Shown here one piece after another: positions 5,921 to 39,221 of a DNA stretch of 42,486 bases. The DNA lies in IMG/VR virus record IMGVR_UViG_2541047683_000004, positions 1 to 42,486 of that record; one strand, written 5' to 3'. The position numbers and the translations under genes were made by a program. The notes under the pieces were generated by a model, which saw only the letters and a list, made by a program, of their open reading frames with translations, was not told where the DNA came from and did not search any database. Each line of letters begins with the position of its first letter. The first letter of the stretch is position 1. The DNA comes from a virus. Taxonomy: Duplodnaviria; Heunggongvirae; Uroviricota; Caudoviricetes.

Positions 5921-5937
5921 ATTACCTTTCAGGTAAT
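5921..5937. promoter_or_regulatory. Operator-like palindrome ATTACC-N5-GGTAAT (copy 1)
   Basis: Perfect 17-bp palindrome attacctttcaggtaat in intergenic DNA between tailspike start and LexA-box gene. Confidence 0.6.
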
Positions 5938-5975
5938 TTGCAAAACGTGCTGGATAGCAAACAAATTATTTGCTA

Positions 5976-5991
5976 CTGTATAAATATACAG
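5976..5991 (+). promoter_or_regulatory. LexA (SOS) box CTGT-N8-ACAG
   Basis: tactgtataaatatacagtt matches LexA consensus taCTGTatatatataCAGta; 22 bp upstream of ATG 6014. Confidence 0.7.
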
Positions 5992-6013
5992 TTATTGCAT
6001 GGAGAAGATTAAG

Positions 6014-6271
6014 ATGCAGCAGTATCACTATCCACTGGAAGACGGATTTACCGAAAGGATTCACACGCCGGGAGGCGTCAGGTCACTGGTGGAGGGATCG
6101 CACTTGATGAAATTACTCCGGGATCTCGATAAGGATGGATTTAATGTCGATGGCCCACTTGCCGAACTGACTGCACTGATTAACTACGTCACCAGCTCAC
6201 AGATGTCTATGCGGGATCTGCAAACACATCTCGACTATTGTGCCGAACAATTACGAAAACAAACCCGGTAA
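6014..6271 (+). CDS. Small SOS-controlled antirepressor-like protein (stand-alone copy of the shared C-terminal module)
   Basis: 85 aa; GGAGAAG RBS; aligns to the C-terminal 70 aa of the two larger antirepressor-like proteins (LM.LL..L..DG..V.G..AELT ... RD.QTH..Y). Confidence 0.6.
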   Translation: MQQYHYPLEDGFTERIHTPGGVRSLVEGSHLMKLLRDLDKDGFNVDGPLAELTALINYVTSSQMSMRDLQTHLDYCAEQLRKQTR

Positions 6272-7041: not shown

Positions 7042-7058
7042 ATTACCTTAAAGGTAAT
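7042..7058. promoter_or_regulatory. Operator-like palindrome (copy 2)
   Basis: attaccttaaaggtaat, 14 nt upstream of RBS of gene 6294-7022. Confidence 0.6.
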
Positions 7059-7134
7059 ATCTTGCTTTCAGGTGATCAAGCATTAAACGCAACCAACCAA
7101 ATACGGTTGATTTTAATATTTCTTCGCGTTTATC

Positions 7135-7151
7135 ATTACCTTTGCGGTAAA
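7135..7151. promoter_or_regulatory. Operator-like palindrome (copy 3) abutting putative -35 TTTACA of leader promoter
   Basis: attacctttgcggtaaa; followed by TTTACA-N17-CATAGT. Confidence 0.55.
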
Positions 7152-7186
7152 TTTACATCGCACTCCTCTTGTGCCATAGTAATCGG

Positions 7187-7262
7187 GCACTGGCAAAATC
7201 CAGTGCCGGGATTGGCGTCCCGGATTACTAAAAGGCGCATTCACCGCGCAAGCGGTTTTTTT
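7187..7262 (+). ncRNA. Candidate small structured RNA (two hairpins plus intrinsic terminator) in antirepressor leader A; c4-like riboregulator candidate
   Basis: Hairpins gcactgg/ccagtgc and ccggg/cccgg, terminator accgc-gcaa-gcggt-T7; conserved with compensatory changes in inverted copy at 10096-10174. Confidence 0.4.
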
Positions 7263-7419
7263 ATGCGTATAGCACGGCCACATTCGTATTATGGTGGGCT
7301 GTGTGGGGGCACCGAAAGGTGCGCCGGGTCCTTTTAGCCGGTTACGCCAACCCTGCACAGTTCACCACCAACCGATTGGCGTCGGTAGTGGTGATTAACC
7401 AGACTAAAAGGTAACCACT

Positions 7420-8115
7420 ATGACAGCTACAAAAAGCACGTCCATTTTTTCTTTCGAATCCCAAGCCGATATACGGGTAATCGTCATTAATGGTGAGCCA
7501 TGGTTTATCGCTTCAGATGTTTGTCGGGCTATAGGCATAGCAAACCATCGAGATGCTGTTCGAAAACTTGATGATGATGAGAAGGGCGTCGCTTCAACCG
7601 ACACCCCTGGCGGTGAGCAAGAATCGATCATCATCTCCGAGTCAGGCCTCTACACACTGATCCTCCGCTGCCGCGACGCAGTGACACCAGGCACTATCCC
7701 CTACCGCTTTCGCAAATGGGTTACAGGTGAGGTTCTTCCTCAGATCCGCCGCACCGGAAGTTACATTAAAAACTCGCTCCCGCAGGAAGAACGCATAAAG
7801 ATGGTTGCCGACCAGGTAGCCAACGCCACGGCGTCAGCAGTAATGCAGGCGATGAAGATAGAGAACAAAACCTACAGCGCCCCGCTGAAGCCCGGCTACC
7901 GCAGTCTGATTCATTCGCCGTCTGGTGTTCTCGGCCTGACGGAGAACTCATTGCTGATGAATCTGCTGAATCAGTTGCAGGACGACGGGCATGATGTATC
8001 GGGCGCGGCGGCGGAACTGACCACCATGTTCTGCTACATCGTCGGTGTGAGCAAATGCCTGCGTGATATCCAGACCCACGCGGAGTACATCAACGACAAG
8101 GCAGGGTTCTTCTGA
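7420..8115 (+). CDS. Antirepressor-like protein, Bro-N type N-terminal domain plus shared C-terminal module
   Basis: N-terminal SIFSFESQADIRVIVINGEPWFIASDVCRAIGI resembles Bro-N; C-terminal 80 aa nearly identical to gene 9289-9939. Confidence 0.65.
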   Translation: MTATKSTSIFSFESQADIRVIVINGEPWFIASDVCRAIGIANHRDAVRKLDDDEKGVASTDTPGGEQESIIISESGLYTLILRCRDAVTPGTIPYRFRKWVTGEVLPQIRRTGSYIKNSLPQEERIKMVADQVANATASAVMQAMKIENKTYSAPLKPGYRSLIHSPSGVLGLTENSLLMNLLNQLQDDGHDVSGAAAELTTMFCYIVGVSKCLRDIQTHAEYINDKAGFF

Positions 8116-8159
8116 CGGGCGGTGGCACAGGGATGTGCCTTTAAATAATTCTGTACAGA

Positions 8160-8188
8160 TTGCAGACTGTGGGTGAATAGCGTACTAT
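8160..8188 (+). promoter_or_regulatory. Sigma70-like promoter TTGCAG-N17-TACTAT for cassette 8263-9216
   Basis: Hexamers with 17-bp spacer; operator palindrome overlaps -10 and start site. Confidence 0.5.
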
Positions 8189-8203
8189 TACCTCAAGGGT
8201 AAA
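8187..8203. promoter_or_regulatory. Operator-like palindrome (copy 4)
   Basis: attacctcaagggtaaa overlapping -10/+1 of cassette promoter. Confidence 0.55.
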
Positions 8204-8262: not shown

Positions 8263-8442
8263 ATGCGAAACGAAAAATTGCAGATGCGTAGAGCGCAAGC
8301 TGCCGCAAGACGTTCTTTCAATGGAAGCGTAGAGTACGTAAAAGTTACTATGACAAAAGATCACGCAAGTCGCGTATCCCGCGCTTTCTTTGATTCTCGT
8401 AACAATAAGGAAAATTATGAGTTCGTCTGCGTCGCAGAATGA
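8263..8442 (+). CDS. Small basic protein (59 aa), candidate antitoxin or regulator
   Basis: GAGGT RBS 6 nt upstream of ATG; overlaps start of downstream gene by 26 nt; not in supplied ORF track because under 60 aa. Confidence 0.4.
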   Translation: MRNEKLQMRRAQAAARRSFNGSVEYVKVTMTKDHASRVSRAFFDSRNNKENYEFVCVAE

Positions 8443-8962
8443 TAAAAATCAAATTGTCAGATATAAGGGTCGAGTGTTGCATACGCAAAATTTCTCGGCC
8501 CTTTGTGCATCTGATCTTGAGCTGAAGAAAGTATCTGATGCCTTTACCCAGTATTGGAAAACGGGATACCATCCATCTCTTGGTAAAGATGCTGCATTTG
8601 CTCGTCCGACAGAAATGCTTAAACTAAATGTCAGGCATACTCATGTCGATAACCAAGACTATATTCCAGAAGATAGTGATAAAAAACACACTGGTAAAAA
8701 ATCATCTTGGGATGCATGGAAAAATATAGCGTCTGTACAAGTAAAATGCATACCAACAAGTGATTGCTTTTTAGTTTATTCGGTAAATCACAATCGTGAT
8801 GCGCTGGTTATGTTTTTTGTTGACGCAGATGCTCACAACATAACTGAGCAAGAAGAGTTTAAAGAGGAAGCAATCACTATCAGTTATCAATTCTTTGAGA
8901 AAACAAAAACAGAACCAATGCCTTTAGAAGAAGATCTTTTTTCTGATAAATGGAAGGAATAG
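8417..8962 (+). CDS. AT-rich accessory protein, possible YafO-like toxin (tentative)
   Basis: AAGGAAA RBS; motif pattern F..Y...G..P..GKD, RHTHV, FLVYS, DADAH resembles recalled YafO-family pattern; visibly AT-rich versus flanks. Confidence 0.4.
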   Translation: MSSSASQNDKNQIVRYKGRVLHTQNFSALCASDLELKKVSDAFTQYWKTGYHPSLGKDAAFARPTEMLKLNVRHTHVDNQDYIPEDSDKKHTGKKSSWDAWKNIASVQVKCIPTSDCFLVYSVNHNRDALVMFFVDADAHNITEQEEFKEEAITISYQFFEKTKTEPMPLEEDLFSDKWKE

Positions 8963-9288: not shown

Positions 9289-9939
9289 TCAGAAGAACCC
9301 TGCCTTGTCGTTGATGTACTCCGCGTGGGTCTGGATATCACGCAGGCATTTACTCACACCGACGATGTAGCAGAACATGGTGGTCAGCTCCGCCGCCGCG
9401 CCCGATACATCGTGCCCGTCTTCCTGTAACTGGTTCAGCAGATTCATCAGCAGTGAGTTTTCCGTCAGGCCGAGAACACCAGACGGAGAATGAATCAGAC
9501 TGCGGTAGCCGGGCTTCAATGGGGCACTGTATTCTTTTTTGTCTTCCAGCTTGATCGCCTCCATAATGGCGGGCATGAAGCCTGACAAGACCTTCTCCAC
9601 TTTTGTTTCTTGTTGTCTTAAACGTTTCTCGCATTCAATGAAGTAGCGTCGTACCTGACGACCTTTTTCGTTACGCTCGACCATCGCCAGCTCTTTGGCT
9701 GTATCGAGGGTTAGGTGGTAGTCTTTTGCAGGACGGCCTCTGCCTATTTTTTCCCGAACTTGGGAAATAATCATAAAGTCTTGATTTTCAACGAAGCCAT
9801 ATTCAGCAATTCGTTCGACAATCCACGAAGCAAATCGCTTACCCACATCGAGGAAAGTGTGTAAATCACGGGCATTAACGAGAAGAGCGGTTTCGTTGGA
9901 TATAGTGCCGTTGAATACGGGGATGAGTTGAGCGTTCAT
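9289..9939 (-). CDS. Antirepressor-like protein, AntA/Rha-type N-terminal domain plus shared C-terminal module
   Basis: N-terminal LIPVFNGTISNETALLVNARDLHTFLDVGKRFASWIVERIAEYGFVENQDF resembles AntA-type domain; C-terminal 80 aa matches gene 7420-8115; GGAG RBS. Confidence 0.65.
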   Translation of the reverse strand: MNAQLIPVFNGTISNETALLVNARDLHTFLDVGKRFASWIVERIAEYGFVENQDFMIISQVREKIGRGRPAKDYHLTLDTAKELAMVERNEKGRQVRRYFIECEKRLRQQETKVEKVLSGFMPAIMEAIKLEDKKEYSAPLKPGYRSLIHSPSGVLGLTENSLLMNLLNQLQEDGHDVSGAAAELTTMFCYIVGVSKCLRDIQTHAEYINDKAGFF

Positions 9940-10095
9940 GATGGCGTCTCCACTTAGCGAATTACATCACCACCGCTGAGACCAATCAGATGGTGGTGAA
10001 CTGAACGGAGTTGGTCTTACCGGCCTAAGTGGTACCGGCGTCCTTTCGGACCCCCATTCAGCCCACCATAATTCTGGCATGACTGTGCTATACGC

Positions 10096-10174
10096 ATAAA
10101 AAAACCACGTCTGGCGTGGTATGCGCCACTTAGTAATCCGGGAGACCAATCCCGGCACTGGATTTTGCCAGTGC
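10096..10174 (-). ncRNA. Candidate small structured RNA in antirepressor leader B (inverted paralog of 7187-7262)
   Basis: Same hairpin-hairpin-terminator architecture; terminator stem differs in sequence but preserves pairing (ccacg-ccaga-cgtgg). Confidence 0.4.
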
Positions 10175-10209
10175 CTGATTACTATGGCACAAGAGGAATG
10201 CGATGTAAA

Positions 10210-10226
10210 TTTACCGCAAAGGTAAT
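10210..10226. promoter_or_regulatory. Operator-like palindrome (copy 5)
   Basis: tttaccgcaaaggtaat, inverted counterpart of copy 3. Confidence 0.55.
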
Positions 10227-10372: not shown

Positions 10373-10771
10373 GTGCCATTCCACGGCGCAGAGCTTTATG
10401 TTGTCAATCACAACGGCGAACCGTATACCCCAATGAAACCTATCGTTGAGGGAATGGGGCTAGACTGGAAATCTCAACATAAGAAGATTTCTCAACGCTT
10501 CTCGAAGGGTATGGTGGAAATCACCATACCTTCTGCCGGTGGGGTGCAAGCCATGATTTGTATGGCTTTACGAAAATTGGCAGCTTGGTTGAACAGCATC
10601 AGCCCTAACAAAGTCCGCCCTGAAATCCGCGACAAGGTAATCCAGTATCAGGAAGAGTGTGACGATGTGCTCTACGAGTACTGGACTAAAGGCCATGTGG
10701 TTAACCCACGCAAAGCTAAAAAGGCGTTGCCGGGTAAAATCACTACTGAGCAACAGGAGGTATACACTTAA
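10373..10771 (+). CDS. Antirepressor N-terminal-domain-like protein, start codon unclear (possibly truncated remnant)
   Basis: Segment LYVVNHNGEPYTPMKPIVEGMGLDWKSQ resembles P22-antirepressor-type N-domain by recollection; only GTG or internal ATG starts, no good RBS. Confidence 0.35.
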   Translation: MPFHGAELYVVNHNGEPYTPMKPIVEGMGLDWKSQHKKISQRFSKGMVEITIPSAGGVQAMICMALRKLAAWLNSISPNKVRPEIRDKVIQYQEECDDVLYEYWTKGHVVNPRKAKKALPGKITTEQQEVYT

Positions 10772-10795: not shown

Positions 10796-10812
10796 ATTAC
10801 CTTTAAGGTAAT
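10796..10812. promoter_or_regulatory. Operator-like palindrome (copy 6)
   Basis: attacctttaaggtaat 14 nt upstream of RBS of gene 10832; part of 49-bp block identical to that at 7020-7060. Confidence 0.6.
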
Positions 10813-10831: not shown

Positions 10832-11359
10832 ATGGAAGTTTTCTTAATCATCGTCGGCATCGTGATTATTAATTTTGTTTTTTTATTTATTGCAAAAAAA
10901 CAAAAAAGTAACGATATGCATGTTTCTACAACTGATGATCTTACCTTTGTAGAGCATGCACTGAATGTATCAGGATATAAACTCACCCCATACGGAGCTG
11001 GTGTATCACTCATGTCTTTAAGTAACGGTTTTTCAAAAGAAGAAACATTTTCACATATAGCTTTGATGGCTCTTTCTCAACACGCCAAAGTCGCAGGTAG
11101 TGACGCAATTGAGCTTAGTAAAGTTAGCATTCGTGCGATGTCGATAGCTGAAAACTTAACTAAATTATTCAGGAAAGGTCTTATTCGATCAGAAATATAT
11201 AAAAATGATTTGAATGCTATCATGGCTGTCAGCACAATTAATGAAAACCAAGAGGATTGGATTTCCATAGTTCTGGAAAGCAATAGCACATCTAACAAGG
11301 ATACTATTGCTTTGCCGATAAGTGCAGAAGCTTCTTTAGAAGCCATAAACAGCCATTGA
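10832..11359 (+). CDS. AT-rich membrane-anchored accessory protein (moron), function unknown
   Basis: N-terminal TM MEVFLIIVGIVIINFVFLFIA then soluble domain; visibly low GC; shares promoter-operator-RBS-TM cassette with gene 6294-7022. Confidence 0.55.
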   Translation: MEVFLIIVGIVIINFVFLFIAKKQKSNDMHVSTTDDLTFVEHALNVSGYKLTPYGAGVSLMSLSNGFSKEETFSHIALMALSQHAKVAGSDAIELSKVSIRAMSIAENLTKLFRKGLIRSEIYKNDLNAIMAVSTINENQEDWISIVLESNSTSNKDTIALPISAEASLEAINSH

Positions 11360-28890: not shown

Positions 28891-29483
28891 TGATTACCAT
28901 CCTGACGTTCTTTGAGTCGCTTCCTGGCTGCCGCTATGCGATCAGCAATTGTCACATTCACATTAACATCCAGGCGTTCTTTGAACGCGTTGACGTCGAC
29001 GTGCTTACCAATCAGTTCGAGGTTCTTCACCTTGTCAGGCCATTTAATTTTTTTGAGGATTGTCTCTATCGAATCCTCGTTCATGTTCATGATGGTCGAT
29101 GACAGATCAAAGCCACTAAGCGTAGTGCGCCAGATTTTCGGCCACTCGCGGATTGGCTTAAGGCTCCCATCGTCGTTGAGGATGTCGATCACGTCCATCT
29201 GGTCGATCTCCACCAGGCGCATGAGAACGTAATCAGCACTGACGCGCATTCGTTTGTTGCGCTCCTCCATCAACTCGGCAATCCGTTTTTGAATGCGTTC
29301 ATCGCGCATCATGACACTGGCTTTAACTGCCGCTGTATTTGGGGAGAATCCTGCGTTAATCGCTGCCTGAGTCTGGTTTTCAGGCGTTTTGATGTATGAC
29401 TGGCAATAAGCCTCCTGCATTGCTGTGAGCGGCTTAAATTGCGTTGATTTGCGTTTATAGGTTTTAGGTTCAGCAGGCATCAT
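28887..29483 (-). CDS. Terminase small subunit
   Basis: Start moved to internal ATG 29483; helix-turn-helix-like N-terminus; overlaps large subunit start. Confidence 0.6.
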   Translation of the reverse strand: MMPAEPKTYKRKSTQFKPLTAMQEAYCQSYIKTPENQTQAAINAGFSPNTAAVKASVMMRDERIQKRIAELMEERNKRMRVSADYVLMRLVEIDQMDVIDILNDDGSLKPIREWPKIWRTTLSGFDLSSTIMNMNEDSIETILKKIKWPDKVKNLELIGKHVDVNAFKERLDVNVNVTIADRIAAARKRLKERQDGNQ

Positions 29484-29557
29484 AACCACCGTGGTAATAG
29501 TTACCGTTGTGGTAATAGTACCATGCAAAATAAAGCCGCCATAGTTGGCGGCAGTAT

Positions 29558-29770
29558 TCAAAGTCCATCAAATTCATCGTAAAAACTCTCGTCAAGATAC
29601 CCTTCCCATTTACCGCGAATGAAAATTACATCCTCGCCGCAAGGGTGCTGACTGTCGATAACTATATCCCTCCTGGCGCAACCATACTTATGCATGAGAA
29701 ATTTAACCTCTTTCGGAAAATTTGCTGAGTTATCTCTCATATCTTCAAGGTCGTAGCGTATTTTTGGCAT
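29558..29770 (-). CDS. Small hypothetical protein (70 aa)
   Basis: ATG 29770 with AAGGTG RBS; palindrome copy 3 lies just upstream. Confidence 0.45.
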   Translation of the reverse strand: MPKIRYDLEDMRDNSANFPKEVKFLMHKYGCARRDIVIDSQHPCGEDVIFIRGKWEGYLDESFYDEFDGL

Positions 29771-33852: not shown

Positions 33853-33869
33853 TTTACCTCTAAGGTAAT
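33853..33869. promoter_or_regulatory. Operator-like palindrome (copy 8)
   Basis: tttacctctaaggtaat. Confidence 0.55.
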
Positions 33870-33914
33870 TAAAAACCACATAAGACACGAAATCAATAGA
33901 GTTTAGAATGTTTT

Positions 33915-33931
33915 GTTACCTGATAGGTAAT
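33915..33931. promoter_or_regulatory. Operator-like palindrome (copy 9)
   Basis: gttacctgataggtaat; with copy 8 brackets a candidate internal promoter. Confidence 0.55.
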
Positions 33932-35721: not shown

Positions 35722-35837
35722 TCTGGTTACTATCTTCAATTTTTCCGCCCCTTTTTGTTATTGATATTGGCTATTTTGCACAATTGGAAAATTTGATCAA
35801 CCAGATTTGGTTTTTTATTACCTTTGAGGTGCGAATA

Positions 35838-35865
35838 GATATGAAAAGACCGCCAGGTGGCGGTC
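35838..35865 (-). terminator. Intrinsic terminator after Cro-like gene
   Basis: gaccgcc-acct-ggcggtc followed on minus strand by T-run. Confidence 0.55.
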
Positions 35866-35887
35866 TACAGAGGGTTGTGGCTGAATA

Positions 35888-36118
35888 TCATGAGTAGAAG
35901 AAGTATGCCAGTTCTGCTTTTGAGCGCAGCCATTGTCTTGTTTTACAGGCTTTAAAAAGCCCATTCATCAATACCTTACCTGGCATTTTGCGCTTACCTG
36001 TTAAGTGAGTCTGGATATAGTGACTCGTCGTTCCGGCTTCCTGTGCGAAGGCTTCACGCTCATCCGGAGTAAGTGCAAGCCAGTGCTTTTTGAAATCGAA
36101 ATGTCCGTTATCGCTCAT
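35888..36118 (-). CDS. Cro-like small HTH regulator (76 aa)
   Basis: Divergent from repressor gene across operator-rich region; helix-turn-helix-like segment EAFAQEAGTTSHYIQ. Confidence 0.5.
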   Translation of the reverse strand: MSDNGHFDFKKHWLALTPDEREAFAQEAGTTSHYIQTHLTGKRKMPGKVLMNGLFKACKTRQWLRSKAELAYFFYS

Positions 36119-36130
36119 AGCTATTGCCTG

Positions 36131-36154
36131 ATATTTATTTCAGATAATAAATAT
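36131..36154. promoter_or_regulatory. AT-rich inverted repeat ATATTTATT-N6-AATAAATAT in immunity region
   Basis: 9-bp perfect arms, 13 nt upstream of Cro-like ATG. Confidence 0.45.
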
Positions 36155-36201
36155 TCACCCATAAGGTAACAAAAATCAAGGATAGTTACCTATGGGGTGC
36201 A

Positions 36202-36218
36202 TTTACCTGTTGGGTAAT
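36202..36218. promoter_or_regulatory. Operator-like palindrome (copy 10) in immunity region
   Basis: tttacctgttgggtaat; nearby inverse arrangement GGTAAC...GTTACC at 36165-36190. Confidence 0.55.
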
Positions 36219-36272
36219 ATTGCTTTAAATTGAATCATCTACTGATTCATATATGAGGCGATTTTCCAGAAA

Positions 36273-36857
36273 ATGAAAAGTATCCAGGACGTCCGCAGGC
36301 AAAATCTCAACGACTTGATCGACCGTGAATTCAATGGTGTTCAGACGCGGATGGCAGAAAAACTTGGAACTCAGGCAAATCTGGTAAACCGCTGGGCTCT
36401 TGGCAAGAAGGTTATCGGCGACCAGGTTGCGCGAAAAATTGAAGCTGCCGCCAATAAACCCCGTAACTGGCTTGATATCGATCGCTCGCTTTCTCAGGAA
36501 GGTTTTCAGCCTGTCGGCCCAAGCGACATTGGTCAGCTGGCAGCTCACAACCTGGAACGCTGGATGAGCGAAAGCCGCGACCTTTCAACACAGGGAAAAC
36601 TTCACCGCGCATCCGGCGTAGCCCAGGTGACAATCAGCCGCCTGTTAAACAATGAGGTCAGCGTTTCCATTTCCACCCTGGAGAATGTTGCATCCGCATT
36701 CGGGCGTCACGGCTATGAATTACTGATTCACCCGCACGACCCTGCGACCATCAACTATGATCGCTCGCGCTACGCATTGTTACCCGAAACCGAGAAAGCA
36801 AAGATCGAAAGTTACATTGAATTTGTCATCAACCAGAACGAAAAAAACAAACAATAA
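36273..36857 (+). CDS. Phage repressor candidate with two tandem XRE-type HTH domains
   Basis: Two helix-turn-helix-like segments (residues about 20-45 and 105-130); monocistronic between operator clusters; terminator downstream. Confidence 0.6.
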   Translation: MKSIQDVRRQNLNDLIDREFNGVQTRMAEKLGTQANLVNRWALGKKVIGDQVARKIEAAANKPRNWLDIDRSLSQEGFQPVGPSDIGQLAAHNLERWMSESRDLSTQGKLHRASGVAQVTISRLLNNEVSVSISTLENVASAFGRHGYELLIHPHDPATINYDRSRYALLPETEKAKIESYIEFVINQNEKNKQ

Positions 36858-36878
36858 AACCATATTTTTCAGTAAGTA

Positions 36879-36902
36879 AGCCGCCTTATGGCGGCTTTTT
36901 TA
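36879..36902 (+). terminator. Intrinsic terminator after repressor gene
   Basis: agccgcc-ttat-ggcggct followed by T6. Confidence 0.65.
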
Positions 36903-36913
36903 TTGCCTATTCG

Positions 36914-36930
36914 ATTACCTAACGGGTAAT
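36914..36930. promoter_or_regulatory. Operator-like palindrome (copy 11)
   Basis: attacctaacgggtaat upstream of -35. Confidence 0.6.
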
Positions 36931-36948
36931 TTTTTTAACTCATATCTA

Positions 36949-36977
36949 TTGACATCAAACCATATACGCATAATTAT
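36949..36977 (+). promoter_or_regulatory. Early promoter TTGACA-N16-TAATTA
   Basis: Consensus -35 with near-consensus -10, flanked by two operator palindromes. Confidence 0.55.
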
Positions 36978-36992
36978 TACCTAAACGGTAAC
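36976..36992. promoter_or_regulatory. Operator-like palindrome (copy 12) overlapping -10/+1
   Basis: attacctaaacggtaac. Confidence 0.6.
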
Positions 36993-37010
36993 AGAACGAG
37001 GTAACAAGTT

Positions 37011-37163
37011 ATGCAGTGGAAAATCATCAACGGTTGGTACTGCGTTACTGCATGCGGATTCATGAGCTGGAAGTTCCGCACCTTACAGGAAGGCATTAAG
37101 TGGGCTTTCGTCAGCAAAGAAGCTCGCGATGTGGCCAACGATAACGAGATATGGGAGGGCTGA
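37011..37163 (+). CDS. Small early protein (50 aa)
   Basis: GAGG RBS; first ORF of early operon; under 60 aa so absent from ORF track. Confidence 0.4.
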   Translation: MQWKIINGWYCVTACGFMSWKFRTLQEGIKWAFVSKEARDVANDNEIWEG

Positions 37164-37165
37164 TA

Positions 37166-37465
37166 ATGAACGTTAATCAGCAGAAAAATCTTCAAAAAAT
37201 CATGCTGGCATTCGACAAGGACTACCGTCTGTCAGAACAGCTATATGACCGACAAGTTGAACTGATTGAGAGTATCCGGCTTCATCAACTGGCATCAACT
37301 TTCGACGTTGTAACAGTTAAAGGCGTTCGCCAGGAAGTACTGGAGGCCGCTAAAGACAGCCCTGAGTTCGAAGAACTAATGGATGCCTACCGGCGCGAGG
37401 CAATGGCAATTATCGCCCGCTGGGATCTGGCTGATCAGCTTGATGGGCAGAGGGACGCGGCATGA
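37166..37465 (+). CDS. Hypothetical early protein (99 aa)
   Basis: GGGAGGG RBS; stop overlaps nuclease start. Confidence 0.5.
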   Translation: MNVNQQKNLQKIMLAFDKDYRLSEQLYDRQVELIESIRLHQLASTFDVVTVKGVRQEVLEAAKDSPEFEELMDAYRREAMAIIARWDLADQLDGQRDAA

Positions 37466-38283
37466 AACCGGGAATTTATTTCGACATCAGCAACGAAGAC
37501 TACCACGCCGGTGACGGCGTGAGTAAGTCGCAACTGGACATGGTTGCCAAGAATCCGGCGCTTCTTAAATGGGTTCAGGCAGCACCAGAAGACGAAGAGA
37601 AAAAGTCTGCACTGGATATGGGAACCGCATTGCACTGTCTGCTTCTGGAGCCTGGAGAGTTCGACAAACGCTTCATTGTTTCACCGAAATTCGATCGTCG
37701 GACGAAACAAGGTAAAGCTGACGAAGAGGAATTTCTTCGTGATGTGGCGGATATGGGGATTACGGTACTTGATGCCGAGCAGTGGCGGAAACTGGAGCTG
37801 ATGCGTGATAGCGCAATGGCTCACCCGGCGGCACGCTGGATGCTGGAAGCACCTGGTTACTGCGAAGCATCAATGTACTGGAACGATGAAGAGACGGGGG
37901 AGTTGTGCCGAATTCGTCCAGACAAATGGCTGAACGAGCACAACGTGATCGTCGACGTGAAAAAGGTTGCAGATATGGACCGTTTTGCACGCCACATCGA
38001 GGAATTCCGCTACCACGTGCAGGACGCAATGTACCGCGAAGGCGCAATGAGGGTTACTGGTCAGCCGCATGGTTTTTTCTTTCTTGCCGTGAGCGAACGC
38101 ATTGATTGTGGTCGGTATCCGGTACGCGTGTTCGAGCTGGATGCGCAGGATGTCGATGCCGGGCACGCTCTGTTCCGCCGGGATCTGAATACCTATCACG
38201 AATGCCGCATCAATGATGAATGGGGCGGTGTGGAAATCATTAAACGCCCTGAGTGGGCACGCAAACAGGATATGTACATATGA
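37462..38283 (+). CDS. RecE-like PD-(D/E)XK exonuclease
   Basis: 273 aa; motif RIRPDKW ... VIVDVKK; translationally coupled (ATGA) to annealase gene. Confidence 0.6.
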   Translation: MKPGIYFDISNEDYHAGDGVSKSQLDMVAKNPALLKWVQAAPEDEEKKSALDMGTALHCLLLEPGEFDKRFIVSPKFDRRTKQGKADEEEFLRDVADMGITVLDAEQWRKLELMRDSAMAHPAARWMLEAPGYCEASMYWNDEETGELCRIRPDKWLNEHNVIVDVKKVADMDRFARHIEEFRYHVQDAMYREGAMRVTGQPHGFFFLAVSERIDCGRYPVRVFELDAQDVDAGHALFRRDLNTYHECRINDEWGGVEIIKRPEWARKQDMYI

Positions 38284-39221
38284 GCAACGACATCGCAAAC
38301 ATCAACGCACCAGTAGACACAGCAATCGCTGGAACTGCTGCAACTATTTTCAGCCCAGACGGCTTGAACCAACTGATGAAATTCGCCGAGGTAATGGCGC
38401 AAAGCCGCGTAACGGTACCGGCGCACCTCGCCGGGAAACCAGCTGATTGCATGGCCGTGGCAATGCAGGCTGCGCAGTGGGGAATGAACCCGTTTGCCGT
38501 GGCTCAGAAAACCCATGTTGTGAACGGCACGCTAGGTTATGAAGCCCAATTAGTAAACGCAGTTATCTCAACGATGTCGCCAACAAAAGATCGCATCAAC
38601 TACGAGTGGTTCGGGCCGTGGGAACGCGTGATCGGTAAGTTTGTTGAGAAAACATCCAAAAACGGCAATCCATATATCGCACCAGGCTGGACTCTAAAAG
38701 ACGAAGAAGGCTGCGGTGTTCGCGTATGGGCAACCATGAAGGGCGAGGATCAACCTCGAGTGCTTGAGTTAATGCTGTCTCAAGCACAGGTAAGAAACTC
38801 CACACTTTGGGCCAGTGATCCGAAACAACAACTCGCATACCTTGCGACAAAACGCTGGTCTCGCCTGCACTGTCCTGACGTAATCATGGGCGTCTACACC
38901 CCAGACGAATTACAGGAAACGGCACCGCGCGTTGAGCGAGACATTACTCCGCAAACGACCACTGCTGCGGGAATGAACAGTCTGATCAACGCTAAACAAG
39001 TGAAAAAGCCTGATGAGCAAACGCGTAAATCGGATAGCCGTGATCCAGAAGAAATGCTGATGGCCTTTACCAGCGCAGCGATGAATTACAGCACTGTCTC
39101 CGAACTGGATAAGGCTTACAAATACATTGCACAAAAACTTTCAGATGATGACGAACTGCTGGCAAAAGCCACCGACGTTTACAGCGTTCGTCGGGAAGAA
39201 TTAAACGAAACATCTATGTAA
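38280..39221 (+). CDS. RecT/Redbeta-family single-strand annealing protein
   Basis: Downstream partner of nuclease; C-terminal ERDITP segment as recalled in lambda Bet; overall RecT-like pattern. Confidence 0.6.
   Translation: MSNDIANINAPVDTAIAGTAATIFSPDGLNQLMKFAEVMAQSRVTVPAHLAGKPADCMAVAMQAAQWGMNPFAVAQKTHVVNGTLGYEAQLVNAVISTMSPTKDRINYEWFGPWERVIGKFVEKTSKNGNPYIAPGWTLKDEEGCGVRVWATMKGEDQPRVLELMLSQAQVRNSTLWASDPKQQLAYLATKRWSRLHCPDVIMGVYTPDELQETAPRVERDITPQTTTAAGMNSLINAKQVKKPDEQTRKSDSRDPEEMLMAFTSAAMNYSTVSELDKAYKYIAQKLSDDDELLAKATDVYSVRREELNETSM

Follow-up and report, generated by a model that had tools for sequence, protein, structure and literature searches.

The window, i.e. the whole stretch of 42,486 nucleotides analysed here, is a phiV10-like (Uetakevirus) prophage adjoining E. 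coli yfgH/guaA, and its immunity switch is very probably the known lysis-lysogeny Rep-Ant system of ε15/phiV10-like podophages, as in the Salmonella phage SPC32H. Positions 35800-37100 show 98-99% DNA identity to phiV10, ZX5 and PAS61. The switch is organized around a divergent region of exactly 154 bp (36119-36272, 32% G+C), which is flanked by a 76-aa HTH gene on the minus strand and a 194-aa gene, rep, on the plus strand:

35888-36118, minus strand: Cro-like 76-aa HTH gene, first gene of the rightward early operon (ORF list, PHROG)
36273-36857, plus strand: rep, prophage repressor, 194 aa (ORF list, homology, Pfam, AlphaFold model)
36878-36897, plus strand: intrinsic terminator ending the rep transcript (terminator scan; annotated in phiV10)

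An earlier note on this DNA had described an immunity switch in which 36273-36857 encodes the prophage repressor, transcribed as a single gene between two operator clusters, and had given the length and flanking genes of the divergent region; all of this is confirmed. The rep gene constitutes a single-gene unit, with the intrinsic terminator followed by a strong promoter (TTGACA-17-AATTAT, 36949-36977), and operators are located on both sides of it. The encoded protein is 100% identical to phiV10 gp40, which is annotated in GenBank as 'putative transcriptional repressor; two helix-turn-helix motifs', and to ZX5 ORF21. Overexpression of ORF21 resulted in zero free phage and decreased the holin and endolysin transcripts by 99.97-99.99% (PMC9782041), so that the identical protein is known to block lytic growth.

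We determined the domain organization of Rep by profile, sequence and structure comparison. In a phmmer search against the PDB, Rep aligns with SPC32H Rep over residues 1-190 (5D50_A, E 4e-42) and with the tetramer construct 5D4Z_A over residues 89-190 (E 4e-20); Foldseek with the AlphaFold model of Rep also returned 5D50 and 5D4Z as best matches. This AF2 model, a monomer of moderate quality (pLDDT 74.6), shows helical bundles at residues 4-59 and 86-151 that are connected by a disordered stretch (72-83), with a further helix at the C-terminus (172-191). The Pfam profile HTH_3 matches two stretches of Rep, the best being residues 106-147, and a weak match to a YdaS-type HTH covers residues 21-61. 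A Peptidase_S24 domain was not found by Pfam at E <= 1 and the C-terminal half matches 5D4Z instead. Judged by its sequence, Rep is thus not a repressor of the lambda cI/LexA type and is devoid of a RecA-dependent autocleavage module. According to PMC9986798, which cites Kim et al. 2016, SPC32H Rep binds DNA with its N-terminal domain, dimerises through a middle domain (MDD) and uses its C-terminal domain for tetramerisation and for binding Ant. Transferring these published roles along the full-length alignment identifies the second HTH fold of Rep as a dimerisation domain that is followed by a third domain. By this analogy the architecture of Rep is of the SPC32H/ε15 type, with approximate borders as follows (domain names from PMC9986798):

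Residues 1-70: N-terminal HTH DNA-binding domain
Residues 71-86: disordered linker
Residues 87-152: middle HTH-fold dimerisation domain
Residues 153-194: C-terminal tetramerisation/Ant-binding domain

Identity to SPC32H Rep is about 42% overall, 54% in the N-terminal, 33% in the middle and 47% in the C-terminal domain, and in the alignment of Rep proteins N36, L37, R40 and W41 of helix 35-43 are invariant. The higher conservation of the N-terminal domain and the invariance of these four residues fit the invariant operator half-site and suggest that this is the domain reading the operator. Two tandem HTH domains, as proposed before from the sequence, are indeed present in the annotation and in the predicted structure, and the absence of a peptidase domain holds as well. 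The description as a single-chain double-HTH protein devoid of a dimerisation domain is not supported, since the second HTH fold is the dimerisation domain in the solved homologue.

Searching the window for ATTACC-N5-GGTAAT with at most two mismatches yielded 16 sites compared to 1.33 expected, and none of 100 shuffles reached 16. After curation the window contains 17 operator sites, all of them intergenic, most of them symmetric palindromes, and spread over practically all promoter regions of the prophage. In the GenBank record of ε15, 17-mers of the same consensus are marked 'protein_bind: repressor'. The divergent region contains the following elements:

36131-36154, no strand assigned: AT-rich palindrome ATATTTATT-N6-AATAAATAT, overlapping the -10/+1 region of the Cro-like gene promoter
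36154-36170, no strand assigned: putative operator O_R1, TTCACC-CATAA-GGTAAC, position kept in eight related loci, core ACC-N5-GGT invariant
36174-36179, minus strand: candidate -35 TTGATT of the Cro-like gene promoter, inside the spacer AAAAATCAA between O_R1 and O_R2
36185-36201, no strand assigned: putative operator O_R2, GTTACC-TATGG-GGTGCA, the one half fitting the consensus, the other being a CACC-type variant
36202-36218, no strand assigned: putative operator O_R3, TTTACC-TGTTG-GGTAAT

This region had been read as containing palindromes of three kinds. The 9-N6-9 palindrome is there, as are GGTAAC (36165-36170) and GTTACC (36185-36190) at a distance of 14 nt; the third element, written ATTACC-N5-GGTAAT in the earlier note, deviates from that sequence at one position. 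Mixed operator types, on the other hand, are not what the comparison reveals: eight related loci each contain three 17-bp sites that belong to a single family and keep a fixed register, namely O_R1, a spacer of 13-14 nt, and O_R2 abutting O_R3. The three-site arrangement is kept across relatives from E. coli, Enterobacter, Klebsiella, Salmonella and Serratia. The GGTAAC...GTTACC pair was rejected as a separate operator because its halves are parts of two 17-mers, both of which have the invariant ACC-N5-GGT core and stay in register in the eight loci; the pair represents the inner half-sites of O_R1 and O_R2. These two sites carry three and four mismatches to the consensus, respectively, and their assignment as putative operators is based on positional conservation. 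The SPC32H orthologue of O_R2 is a perfect ATTACC-ATTAT-GGTAAT.

In the Cro-like gene promoter, O_R1 occupies the interval that separates the candidate -35 from the candidate -10. The spacer harboring this -35 is invariant in six phages, and a promoter scan proposed an overlapping alternative, TTGTTA-17-TATTAT (36172-36144). On the opposite side the left half of O_R3 may double as -35 of the rep promoter, with a candidate -10 TTAAAT at 36225-36230. TTTACC and a TTWAAT located 17 nt downstream vary little or not at all across all related loci.

Outside the divergent region, operators are located as follows:

5921-5937, plus strand: perfect operator ATTACC-TTTCA-GGTAAT upstream of ant
10796-10812, no strand assigned: perfect operator ATTACC-TTTAA-GGTAAT between the P22_AR_N gene and ORF 10832-11359
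26415-26431, minus strand: operator upstream of the structural-gene operon (phiV10 p06 homologue)
29482-29516, minus strand: two abutting operators directly before the probable real start of the small terminase gene
33853-33931, minus strand: second two-operator promoter module, upstream of the DUF1064 gene operon (sites 33915-33931 and 33853-33869, 62 bp apart, TTGATT-17-TTTAAT between them)
35817-35833, no strand assigned: hybrid operator-like site ATTACC-TTTGA-GGTGCG, directly past the terminator of the Cro-like gene (35847-35866)
36914-36992, plus strand: O_L/P_L module with operators ATTACC-TAACG-GGTAAT (36914-36930) and ATTACC-TAAAC-GGTAAC (36976-36992), 62 bp apart, and P_L elements -35 TTGACA (36949-36954) and -10 AATTAT (36972-36977)

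Orthologues of two of these entries are found in ε15, the pair at 33853-33931 corresponding to 3689/3751 and the site at 5921-5937 being annotated there as repressor-binding. A location of operators inside the terminase gene was rejected, as both sites come after a terminator and before an in-frame ATG; the start codon of the phiV10 small terminase is for this reason probably annotated too far upstream. The outcome is an operator map of an E. coli phiV10-type prophage with 17 sites, including promoter modules in which two operators 62 bp apart enclose the promoter. Operator sequence and O_R layout are unchanged in five host genera in spite of a Rep identity down to 42%, which may reflect the constraint imposed by operators spread over every transcription unit.

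Further operators belong to antirepressor cassettes, of which the prophage carries three:

5974-5993, plus strand: near-consensus LexA box TACTGTATAAATATACAGTT, just upstream of ant
6014-6271, plus strand: ant, encoding a small antirepressor of 85 aa with the second Met of ORF 5999-6271 taken as its start
7042-8203, plus strand: second antirepressor cassette with operators at 7042, 7135 and 8187, isrK-like RNA (7187-7262), C4 antisense RNA (7287-7372) and a Bro-N-Ant fusion gene (7420-8115)
9289-10226, minus strand: third antirepressor cassette, inverted, with operator 10210-10226, isrK (10098-10174), C4 (9989-10073) and an AntA-Ant fusion gene (9289-9939)

The small Ant matches PDB 5D50_E, 'Anti-repressor protein', with an E-value of 1.6e-46 and about 87% identity to SPC32H Ant. 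The LexA box has two mismatches to the consensus, and a match was obtained in 0 of 100 shuffles. As far as can be told from sequence, a cognate small Ant is thus encoded in the same genome behind a predicted LexA control. We also noted an asymmetry between the partners: the C-terminal Ant-binding domain of Rep is 47% identical to that of SPC32H, yet Ant is 87% identical.

The 76-aa protein encoded opposite rep matches PHROG phrog_35 'transcriptional repressor' (E 5.6e-13) and is 76% identical to ε15 gp39, and its HTH, AGTTSHYIQxHLTG, is invariant in six phages. The AT-rich palindrome next to its gene, ATATTTATT-TCAGAT-AATAAATAT, is the sole element that has no place in the Rep-Ant model and is restricted to the phiV10 lineage. 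It might constitute a separate, lineage-specific operator, bound by the Cro-like protein or by a host nucleoid protein, for instance IHF or Fis, and adding a second control layer on the Cro-like promoter; this would be an add-on to Rep-Ant and not a replacement, and we consider it unlikely. In its favor, the palindrome is a perfect 9-N6-9 repeat, a perfect inverted repeat of any kind with 9-nt arms arises in only 1.4% of shuffles of the 154-bp region, it overlaps the -10/+1 of the minus-strand promoter, and 7/9 arm pairs are kept in Tyrion and BUCT554 and 8/9 in L009. However, it occurs once in the window, where no second copy was found at <=3 mismatches, which led us to reject it as a repeated operator. 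It was likewise rejected as a conserved element, since it decays in relatives by substitutions that are neither symmetric nor compensatory and is absent from half of the family (ε15, SPC32H, the Klebsiella phage and the Serratia locus) despite an identical Cro-like HTH. AT-rich self-complementarity is moreover cheap in a region of low G+C containing a -10 element. As a hairpin in the 5'-leader RNA it reaches -9.1 kcal/mol (z = -1.37), no more stable than shuffled sequence, and was discarded in this role as well. The idea that the Cro-like protein and the repressor recognize different sequences finds no support, given that the Cro-like HTH is invariant in six phages and the palindrome is found in the phiV10 lineage only.

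Rep itself could alternatively act as a single-chain pseudo-dimer, in which two unlike HTHs both contact DNA and composite or mixed operators are read with one half per HTH. Two HTH-fold domains are truly present, the second even fitting the HTH_3 profile better than the first, and hybrid sites combining a TTACC half with a CACC-type half do occur (O_R1, O_R2 and the site at 35817). Most sites are, however, symmetric palindromes, which is not expected from two unlike HTHs. The two HTH domains share no detectable sequence similarity, a BLASTP comparison of domain 1 with domain 2 in search of a duplication origin giving no alignment at E <= 100. Counting charges in the sequence gives a net value near zero for domain 2 compared to about +4 for domain 1, and the would-be recognition helix of domain 2 (helix 3) varies by lineage (Q118 to P in ε15/SPC32H) whereas the operator half-site is constant. 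In addition, the second domain of the solved homologue serves for dimerisation (PMC9986798), and the form of that protein which binds DNA is a tetramer (PMC9638917). Taken together this makes a pseudo-dimer most improbable. Only slightly less improbable is a second operator class tuning the phiV10-type switch, be it the CACC-type halves at O_R1, O_R2 and 35817 or the AT-rich palindrome, by means of a DNA-reading middle Rep domain or a Cro-like protein that reads a second motif class.

The Rep-Ant model accordingly remains our preferred reading. In this prophage itself we saw the homology and domain layout of Rep, the operator family with its statistics and its conservation, the LexA box and an orthologue of Ant. 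Tetramer formation, DNA binding by the N-terminal domain, the mechanism of Ant and repressor activity come from published work on homologous or identical proteins. SPC32H Rep is described in PMC9638917 as binding DNA as a tetramer that is disassembled by tetrameric Ant. Rep would dimerise via its middle HTH-fold domain and tetramerise via its C-terminal domain, and its paired N-terminal HTH domains would read the 17-bp ATTACC-N5-GGTAAT. From the promoter positions and the roles of O_R1 to O_R3, as well as from looping between operators 62 bp apart, all of which we infer, the following picture emerges. Since O_R1 sits between -35 and -10 of the Cro-like gene promoter, Rep bound there would shut off the early replication operon. 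Occupation of the abutting O_R2/O_R3 would lead to autoregulation, as both sites overlap the weak promoter of rep itself. Downstream of rep, the two operators 62 bp apart would bracket the leftward early promoter, and one Rep tetramer could plausibly bind both at once because it possesses two DNA-reading units. The same operator would guard nearly all other units, i.e. the replication-distal early genes, terminase, structural genes and all antirepressor genes. Upon DNA damage LexA would be removed from the box preceding ant, and the Ant then produced would bind the C-terminal domains of Rep and strip the tetramer from DNA, Rep self-cleavage not being involved.

With lambda the switch shares a repressor gene located between O_L and a tripartite O_R that is common to a divergent cro-like gene, operators overlapping both divergent promoters, and an O_L controlling a recombination/integration operon; like cI, Rep may be an oligomeric repressor able to bridge sites, here by analogy. 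Unlike cI, Rep has neither an S24 domain nor RecA-stimulated cleavage, induction depending on a LexA-controlled antirepressor instead, and the operators are spread over the whole genome. Oligomerisation of the Rep type also differs, employing an HTH-fold domain and a p53-like tetramerisation element (PMC9986798). Inactivation of the repressor by antirepressor proteins is shared with P22 immI (Ant/Mnt/Arc), P1 immI (c4-icd-ant) and Gifsy/186-Tum. Another common feature are the C4 antisense and isrK RNAs, which precede two ant-type genes here, and as in Gifsy and 186 an antirepressor would be under LexA control (PMC7380047). The small Ant is, in contrast, unrelated to P22 Ant or Tum, and is described in the literature, including PMC9638917, as binding the repressor's C-terminal domain, not competing for its DNA-binding surface. 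Rco of the Bacillus plasmid pLS20 resembles Rep in having an N-terminal XRE-type DNA-binding domain, a C-terminal p53-like tetramerisation (TetDloop) element and an anti-repressor (PMC9986798); it differs in lacking the middle HTH-fold dimerisation domain and belongs to another host and another kind of element.

SPC32H Rep/Ant (PDB 5D50, 5D4Z) corresponds in its full-length homologous Rep with the same three-domain layout, an Ant of 87% identity with a LexA box before ant, ATTACC-N5-GGTAAT operators, the three-site O_R, the O_L layout and the neighboring genes. This pair is said to have been studied by Kim and Ryu (2013, J Virol) and Kim et al. (2016, PNAS). In contrast to SPC32H, O_R2 is degenerate in our prophage (GGTGCA half) and perfect there, O_R1 has its degenerate half on the other side, and two extra large Ant-fusion antirepressors with C4/isrK RNA leaders are present; SPC32H in turn has a third operator in its O_L region. 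The switch is already known, belonging to a family for which crystal structures exist, the induction mechanism has been published and operators are annotated. Its discovery value is small, as the protein has been annotated since deposition of the phiV10 genome and tested functionally in phage ZX5; what changes is the annotation, the second HTH being an oligomerisation domain and the 'inverse pair' two adjacent operators. Compared to the systems of phiV10 (gp40) and vB_EcoP_ZX5 (ORF21), whose counterpart in ε15 is gp38, the switch region shows no substantial difference at its 98-99% DNA identity.

The immunity region is built from the following features, O1 to O3 being the three 17-bp operator sites of the O_R region:

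35817–35833: hybrid operator-like site ATTACC-TTTGA-GGTGCG, between the terminator of the Cro-like gene, which it directly follows, and the next early gene
35888–36118, minus strand: Cro-like gene, 76 aa (ORF list)
36119–36272: divergent gap, 154 bp (sequence)
36154–36170: O1, TTCACC-CATAA-GGTAAC
36185–36201: O2, GTTACC-TATGG-GGTGCA
36202–36218: O3, TTTACC-TGTTG-GGTAAT
36273–36857, plus strand: rep gene, 194 aa (ORF list)
36878–36897: intrinsic terminator after rep (promoter/terminator scan)
36949–36977: strong promoter-like site TTGACA-17-AATTAT beyond the rep terminator (scan)

The anatomy described in the earlier note agrees with the sequence and the ORF list for both genes and the gap between them. 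The exact palindrome ATATTTATT-TCAGAT-AATAAATAT is present at 36131–36154, as are GGTAAC (36165–36170) and GTTACC (36185–36190) at a separation of 14 nt. A third element is found at 36202–36218, but it differs by one base from the proposed ATTACC-N5-GGTAAT copy. Positions 35800–37100 show 98–99% identity to Escherichia phages phiV10, PAS61, ZX5 and others and about 77% to Enterobacter phages Tyrion and BUCT554, all of them Uetakevirus, that is ε15-like temperate podophages. E. coli yfgI/yfgH occupy roughly the first 1.1 kb (positions 1–1100) as the left flank, and guaA is the attachment locus reported for ZX5; the window therefore holds a prophage integrated near guaA. Within this prophage, positions 26753–26826 encode a tRNA. 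On the plus strand a RecE-like nuclease (37462–38283) and a RecT-like annealing protein (ATG at 38280, end at 39221) are encoded by separate ORFs with an ATGA overlap. They are likewise separate in Tyrion and BUCT554, and the single fused recET CDS of the phiV10 record may reflect a frameshift in the phiV10 sequence.

The repressor Rep is 100% identical to phiV10 gp40, already described in its GenBank entry as having two helix-turn-helix motifs, and to ZX5 ORF21. In ZX5, overexpression of the protein identical to Rep left no free phage and lowered endolysin transcripts by 99.99% and holin transcripts by 99.97%, while a Bro-N antirepressor shifted the phage towards lysis (PMC9782041). This supports the proposed immunity switch with 36273–36857 as its repressor gene; this exact protein has already been annotated and functionally tested, and the system is known. 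Pfam places HTH_3 in two stretches of Rep (best at residues 106–147) and a weak YdaS-type HTH match at residues 21–61. The search found no peptidase domain, as the earlier note had claimed, and therefore no cleavage module in Rep. An AlphaFold model (26 homologues as input, mean pLDDT 74.6) has helical bundles at residues 4–59 and 86–151, a disordered linker at 72–83 and a long C-terminal helix at 172–191. Two HTH folds are thus confirmed by Pfam and the model, with no detectable sequence similarity between the two bundles.

Salmonella phage SPC32H has a homologous repressor (PDB 5D50 chain A, E 4e-42) that aligns with Rep residues 1–190, and residues 89–190 align with 5D4Z, the crystallised tetrameric fragment; both structures were the top Foldseek matches to the model. 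PMC9986798 divides SPC32H Rep into three domains: N-terminal for DNA binding, middle (MDD) for dimerisation and C-terminal (CAD) for both tetramerisation and binding of the antirepressor Ant. PMC9638917 describes Rep on DNA as a tetramer, with only weak dimer binding, the palindrome being read by pairs of DNA-binding domains drawn from different dimers. Ant, itself a tetramer, engages two dimers of Rep and thereby breaks the Rep tetramer. From the homology and these published roles we therefore assign the second HTH fold to the dimerisation domain, which contradicts a single-chain double-HTH protein lacking one, and a third domain lies C-terminal to it. Identity to SPC32H Rep is 54% in the N-terminal domain, 6% in the linker, 33% in the middle and 47% in the C-terminal domain. 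N36, L37, R40 and W41 in the N-terminal helix 35–43 are invariant, the corresponding second-domain positions are variable (Q118, for example, is P in ε15 and SPC32H), and the operator half-site is constant in all phages compared. The conserved helix and constant half-site fit N-terminal recognition, as published for the SPC32H homologue.

Allowing two mismatches, ATTACC-N5-GGTAAT occurs 16 times in the window versus 1.33 expected, a number equalled in 0 of 100 shuffles; the enrichment is real and well above chance. Adding sites with the invariant ACC-N5-GGT core gives 17 candidate operators, all intergenic given a probably mis-annotated terminase start. The ε15 GenBank record marks 17-mers of the same consensus as "protein_bind: repressor", and sites occupy orthologous positions in phiV10 and ε15. 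We compared the divergent regions of the window, Tyrion, BUCT554, a Klebsiella phage, SPC32H, ε15, and an E. coli and a Serratia prophage (Rep 58% and 53% identical, respectively). All have a single fixed O_R architecture: O1, a spacer of 13–14 nt (AAAAATCAA in enterobacterial phages), and O2 immediately abutting O3. This layout and the perfect SPC32H O2 (ATTACC-ATTAT-GGTAAT) thus indicate one 17-bp operator family of graded half-site quality in fixed register, and not the mixed operator types proposed. The recurrent CACC half is, judged by sequence, a variant within this family. The "inverse GGTAAC...GTTACC pair" was rejected as an operator of its own, because its two parts belong to different operators, GGTAAC to O1 as the right half and GTTACC to O2 as the left. 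Of the earlier interpretation, the immunity switch, the repressor, the missing peptidase and the two HTH folds stand; the single-chain double HTH and the mixed operators do not.

Relatives from E. coli, Enterobacter, Klebsiella, Salmonella and Serratia (loci L002, L004–L009) keep the operator consensus and the O1-spacer-O2O3 arrangement, despite Rep divergence to 42–53% identity. In lambdoid phages, by contrast, immunity specificity has diversified. Specificity may be held fixed by the roughly 17 operators across all transcription units.

For the minus-strand Cro-like promoter the conserved spacer would supply a -35 TTGATT (36179–36174), and the outer edge of O1 would hold the -10; an overlapping alternative from the scan is TTGTTA-17-TATTAT. 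Under either assignment O1 would lie between -35 and -10. The left half of O3 is TTTACC in every phage compared, followed 17 nt on by TTWAAT (36225–36230 in the window), together a plausible weak plus-strand rep promoter that would be overlapped by O3 and abutted by O2. Downstream of rep, a putative leftward early promoter would be bracketed by operators at 36914 and 36976. The two-operator layout recurs at 33915/33853 and at two loci of ε15 (L004 7041/7103 and 3689/3751), each pair exactly 62 bp start to start and of fixed design: operator, 18 nt, -35, 17 nt, -10 overlapping the second operator. Having two DNA-reading units, a tetramer could hold both paired operators on one helix face, and the fixed pairing suggests one tetramer on both. 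Other candidate operators lie upstream of the terminase gene, the structural operon and every antirepressor gene, and the hybrid site at 35817–35833 could make termination or read-through depend on Rep occupancy. At 29478–29561 on the minus strand, the first 27 codons of the long ORF matching the phiV10 small terminase include a terminator-like hairpin and two candidate Rep operators, and an in-frame ATG (29480–29478) follows both operators; the published start is therefore probably too far upstream.

One feature is left over by the known Rep–Ant model, the AT-rich palindrome at 36131–36154. It is locally improbable, a perfect inverted repeat with 9-nt arms arising in 1.4% of shuffles (region 32% G+C), and it overlaps the Cro-like promoter of the minus strand in the -10/+1 region. 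That it forms a separate regulatory site is nevertheless improbable in our view. No second copy was found in the window, and as an RNA hairpin it is not notably stable. Arm pairs are kept at 7/9 in Tyrion and BUCT554 and 8/9 in L009, a related locus, with non-compensatory changes; ε15, SPC32H, the Klebsiella phage and the Serratia locus lack the palindrome. Window and ε15 share 76% identity in the Cro-like protein, whose HTH (AGTTSHYIQxHLTG) is invariant, and a target common to all these phages is therefore likelier for it than this lineage-specific palindrome.

The Ant chain of 5D50 has its match in the ORF at 5999–6271 (start probably 6014; E 1.6e-46, ~87% identity). Positions 5974–5993 form a near-consensus LexA box, TACTGTATAAATATACAGTT, and positions 5921–5937 a perfect Rep operator. 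Ant is thus ~87% identical to its SPC32H counterpart versus ~42% for Rep and 47% for the Ant-binding C-terminal domain. Mutually binding partners are expected to diverge together, and the asymmetry could allow cross-induction between related prophages. In two more window proteins a C-terminal domain resembling Ant (43% identity) is fused to a Bro-N or AntA N-terminus, giving three Ant-domain proteins in the prophage with the small LexA-controlled Ant. A leader with Rfam isrK and C4 antisense RNAs precedes each fusion gene:

7042–8203, plus strand: cassette with Rep operator, isrK-like RNA, C4 antisense RNA and Bro-N-Ant gene (7420–8115)
9289–10226, minus strand: cassette with Rep operator, isrK-like RNA, C4 antisense RNA and AntA-Ant gene (9289–9939)

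The two cassettes are inverted, and the phiV10 alignment contains only one. A YafO-toxin-like ORF (8390–8962, plus strand, Pfam E 9e-6) lies between them and a P22_AR_N-domain ORF (10373–10771, plus strand, E 9e-45) just past the second.

The switch belongs to a family already characterised structurally and mechanistically. The summary in PMC7380047 places SPC32H ant under LexA control with Rep uncleaved, and the ant/LexA box arrangement of the window is that reported for SPC32H. The isrK/C4-type leaders before the Ant-fusion genes resemble those of the P1 immI region.
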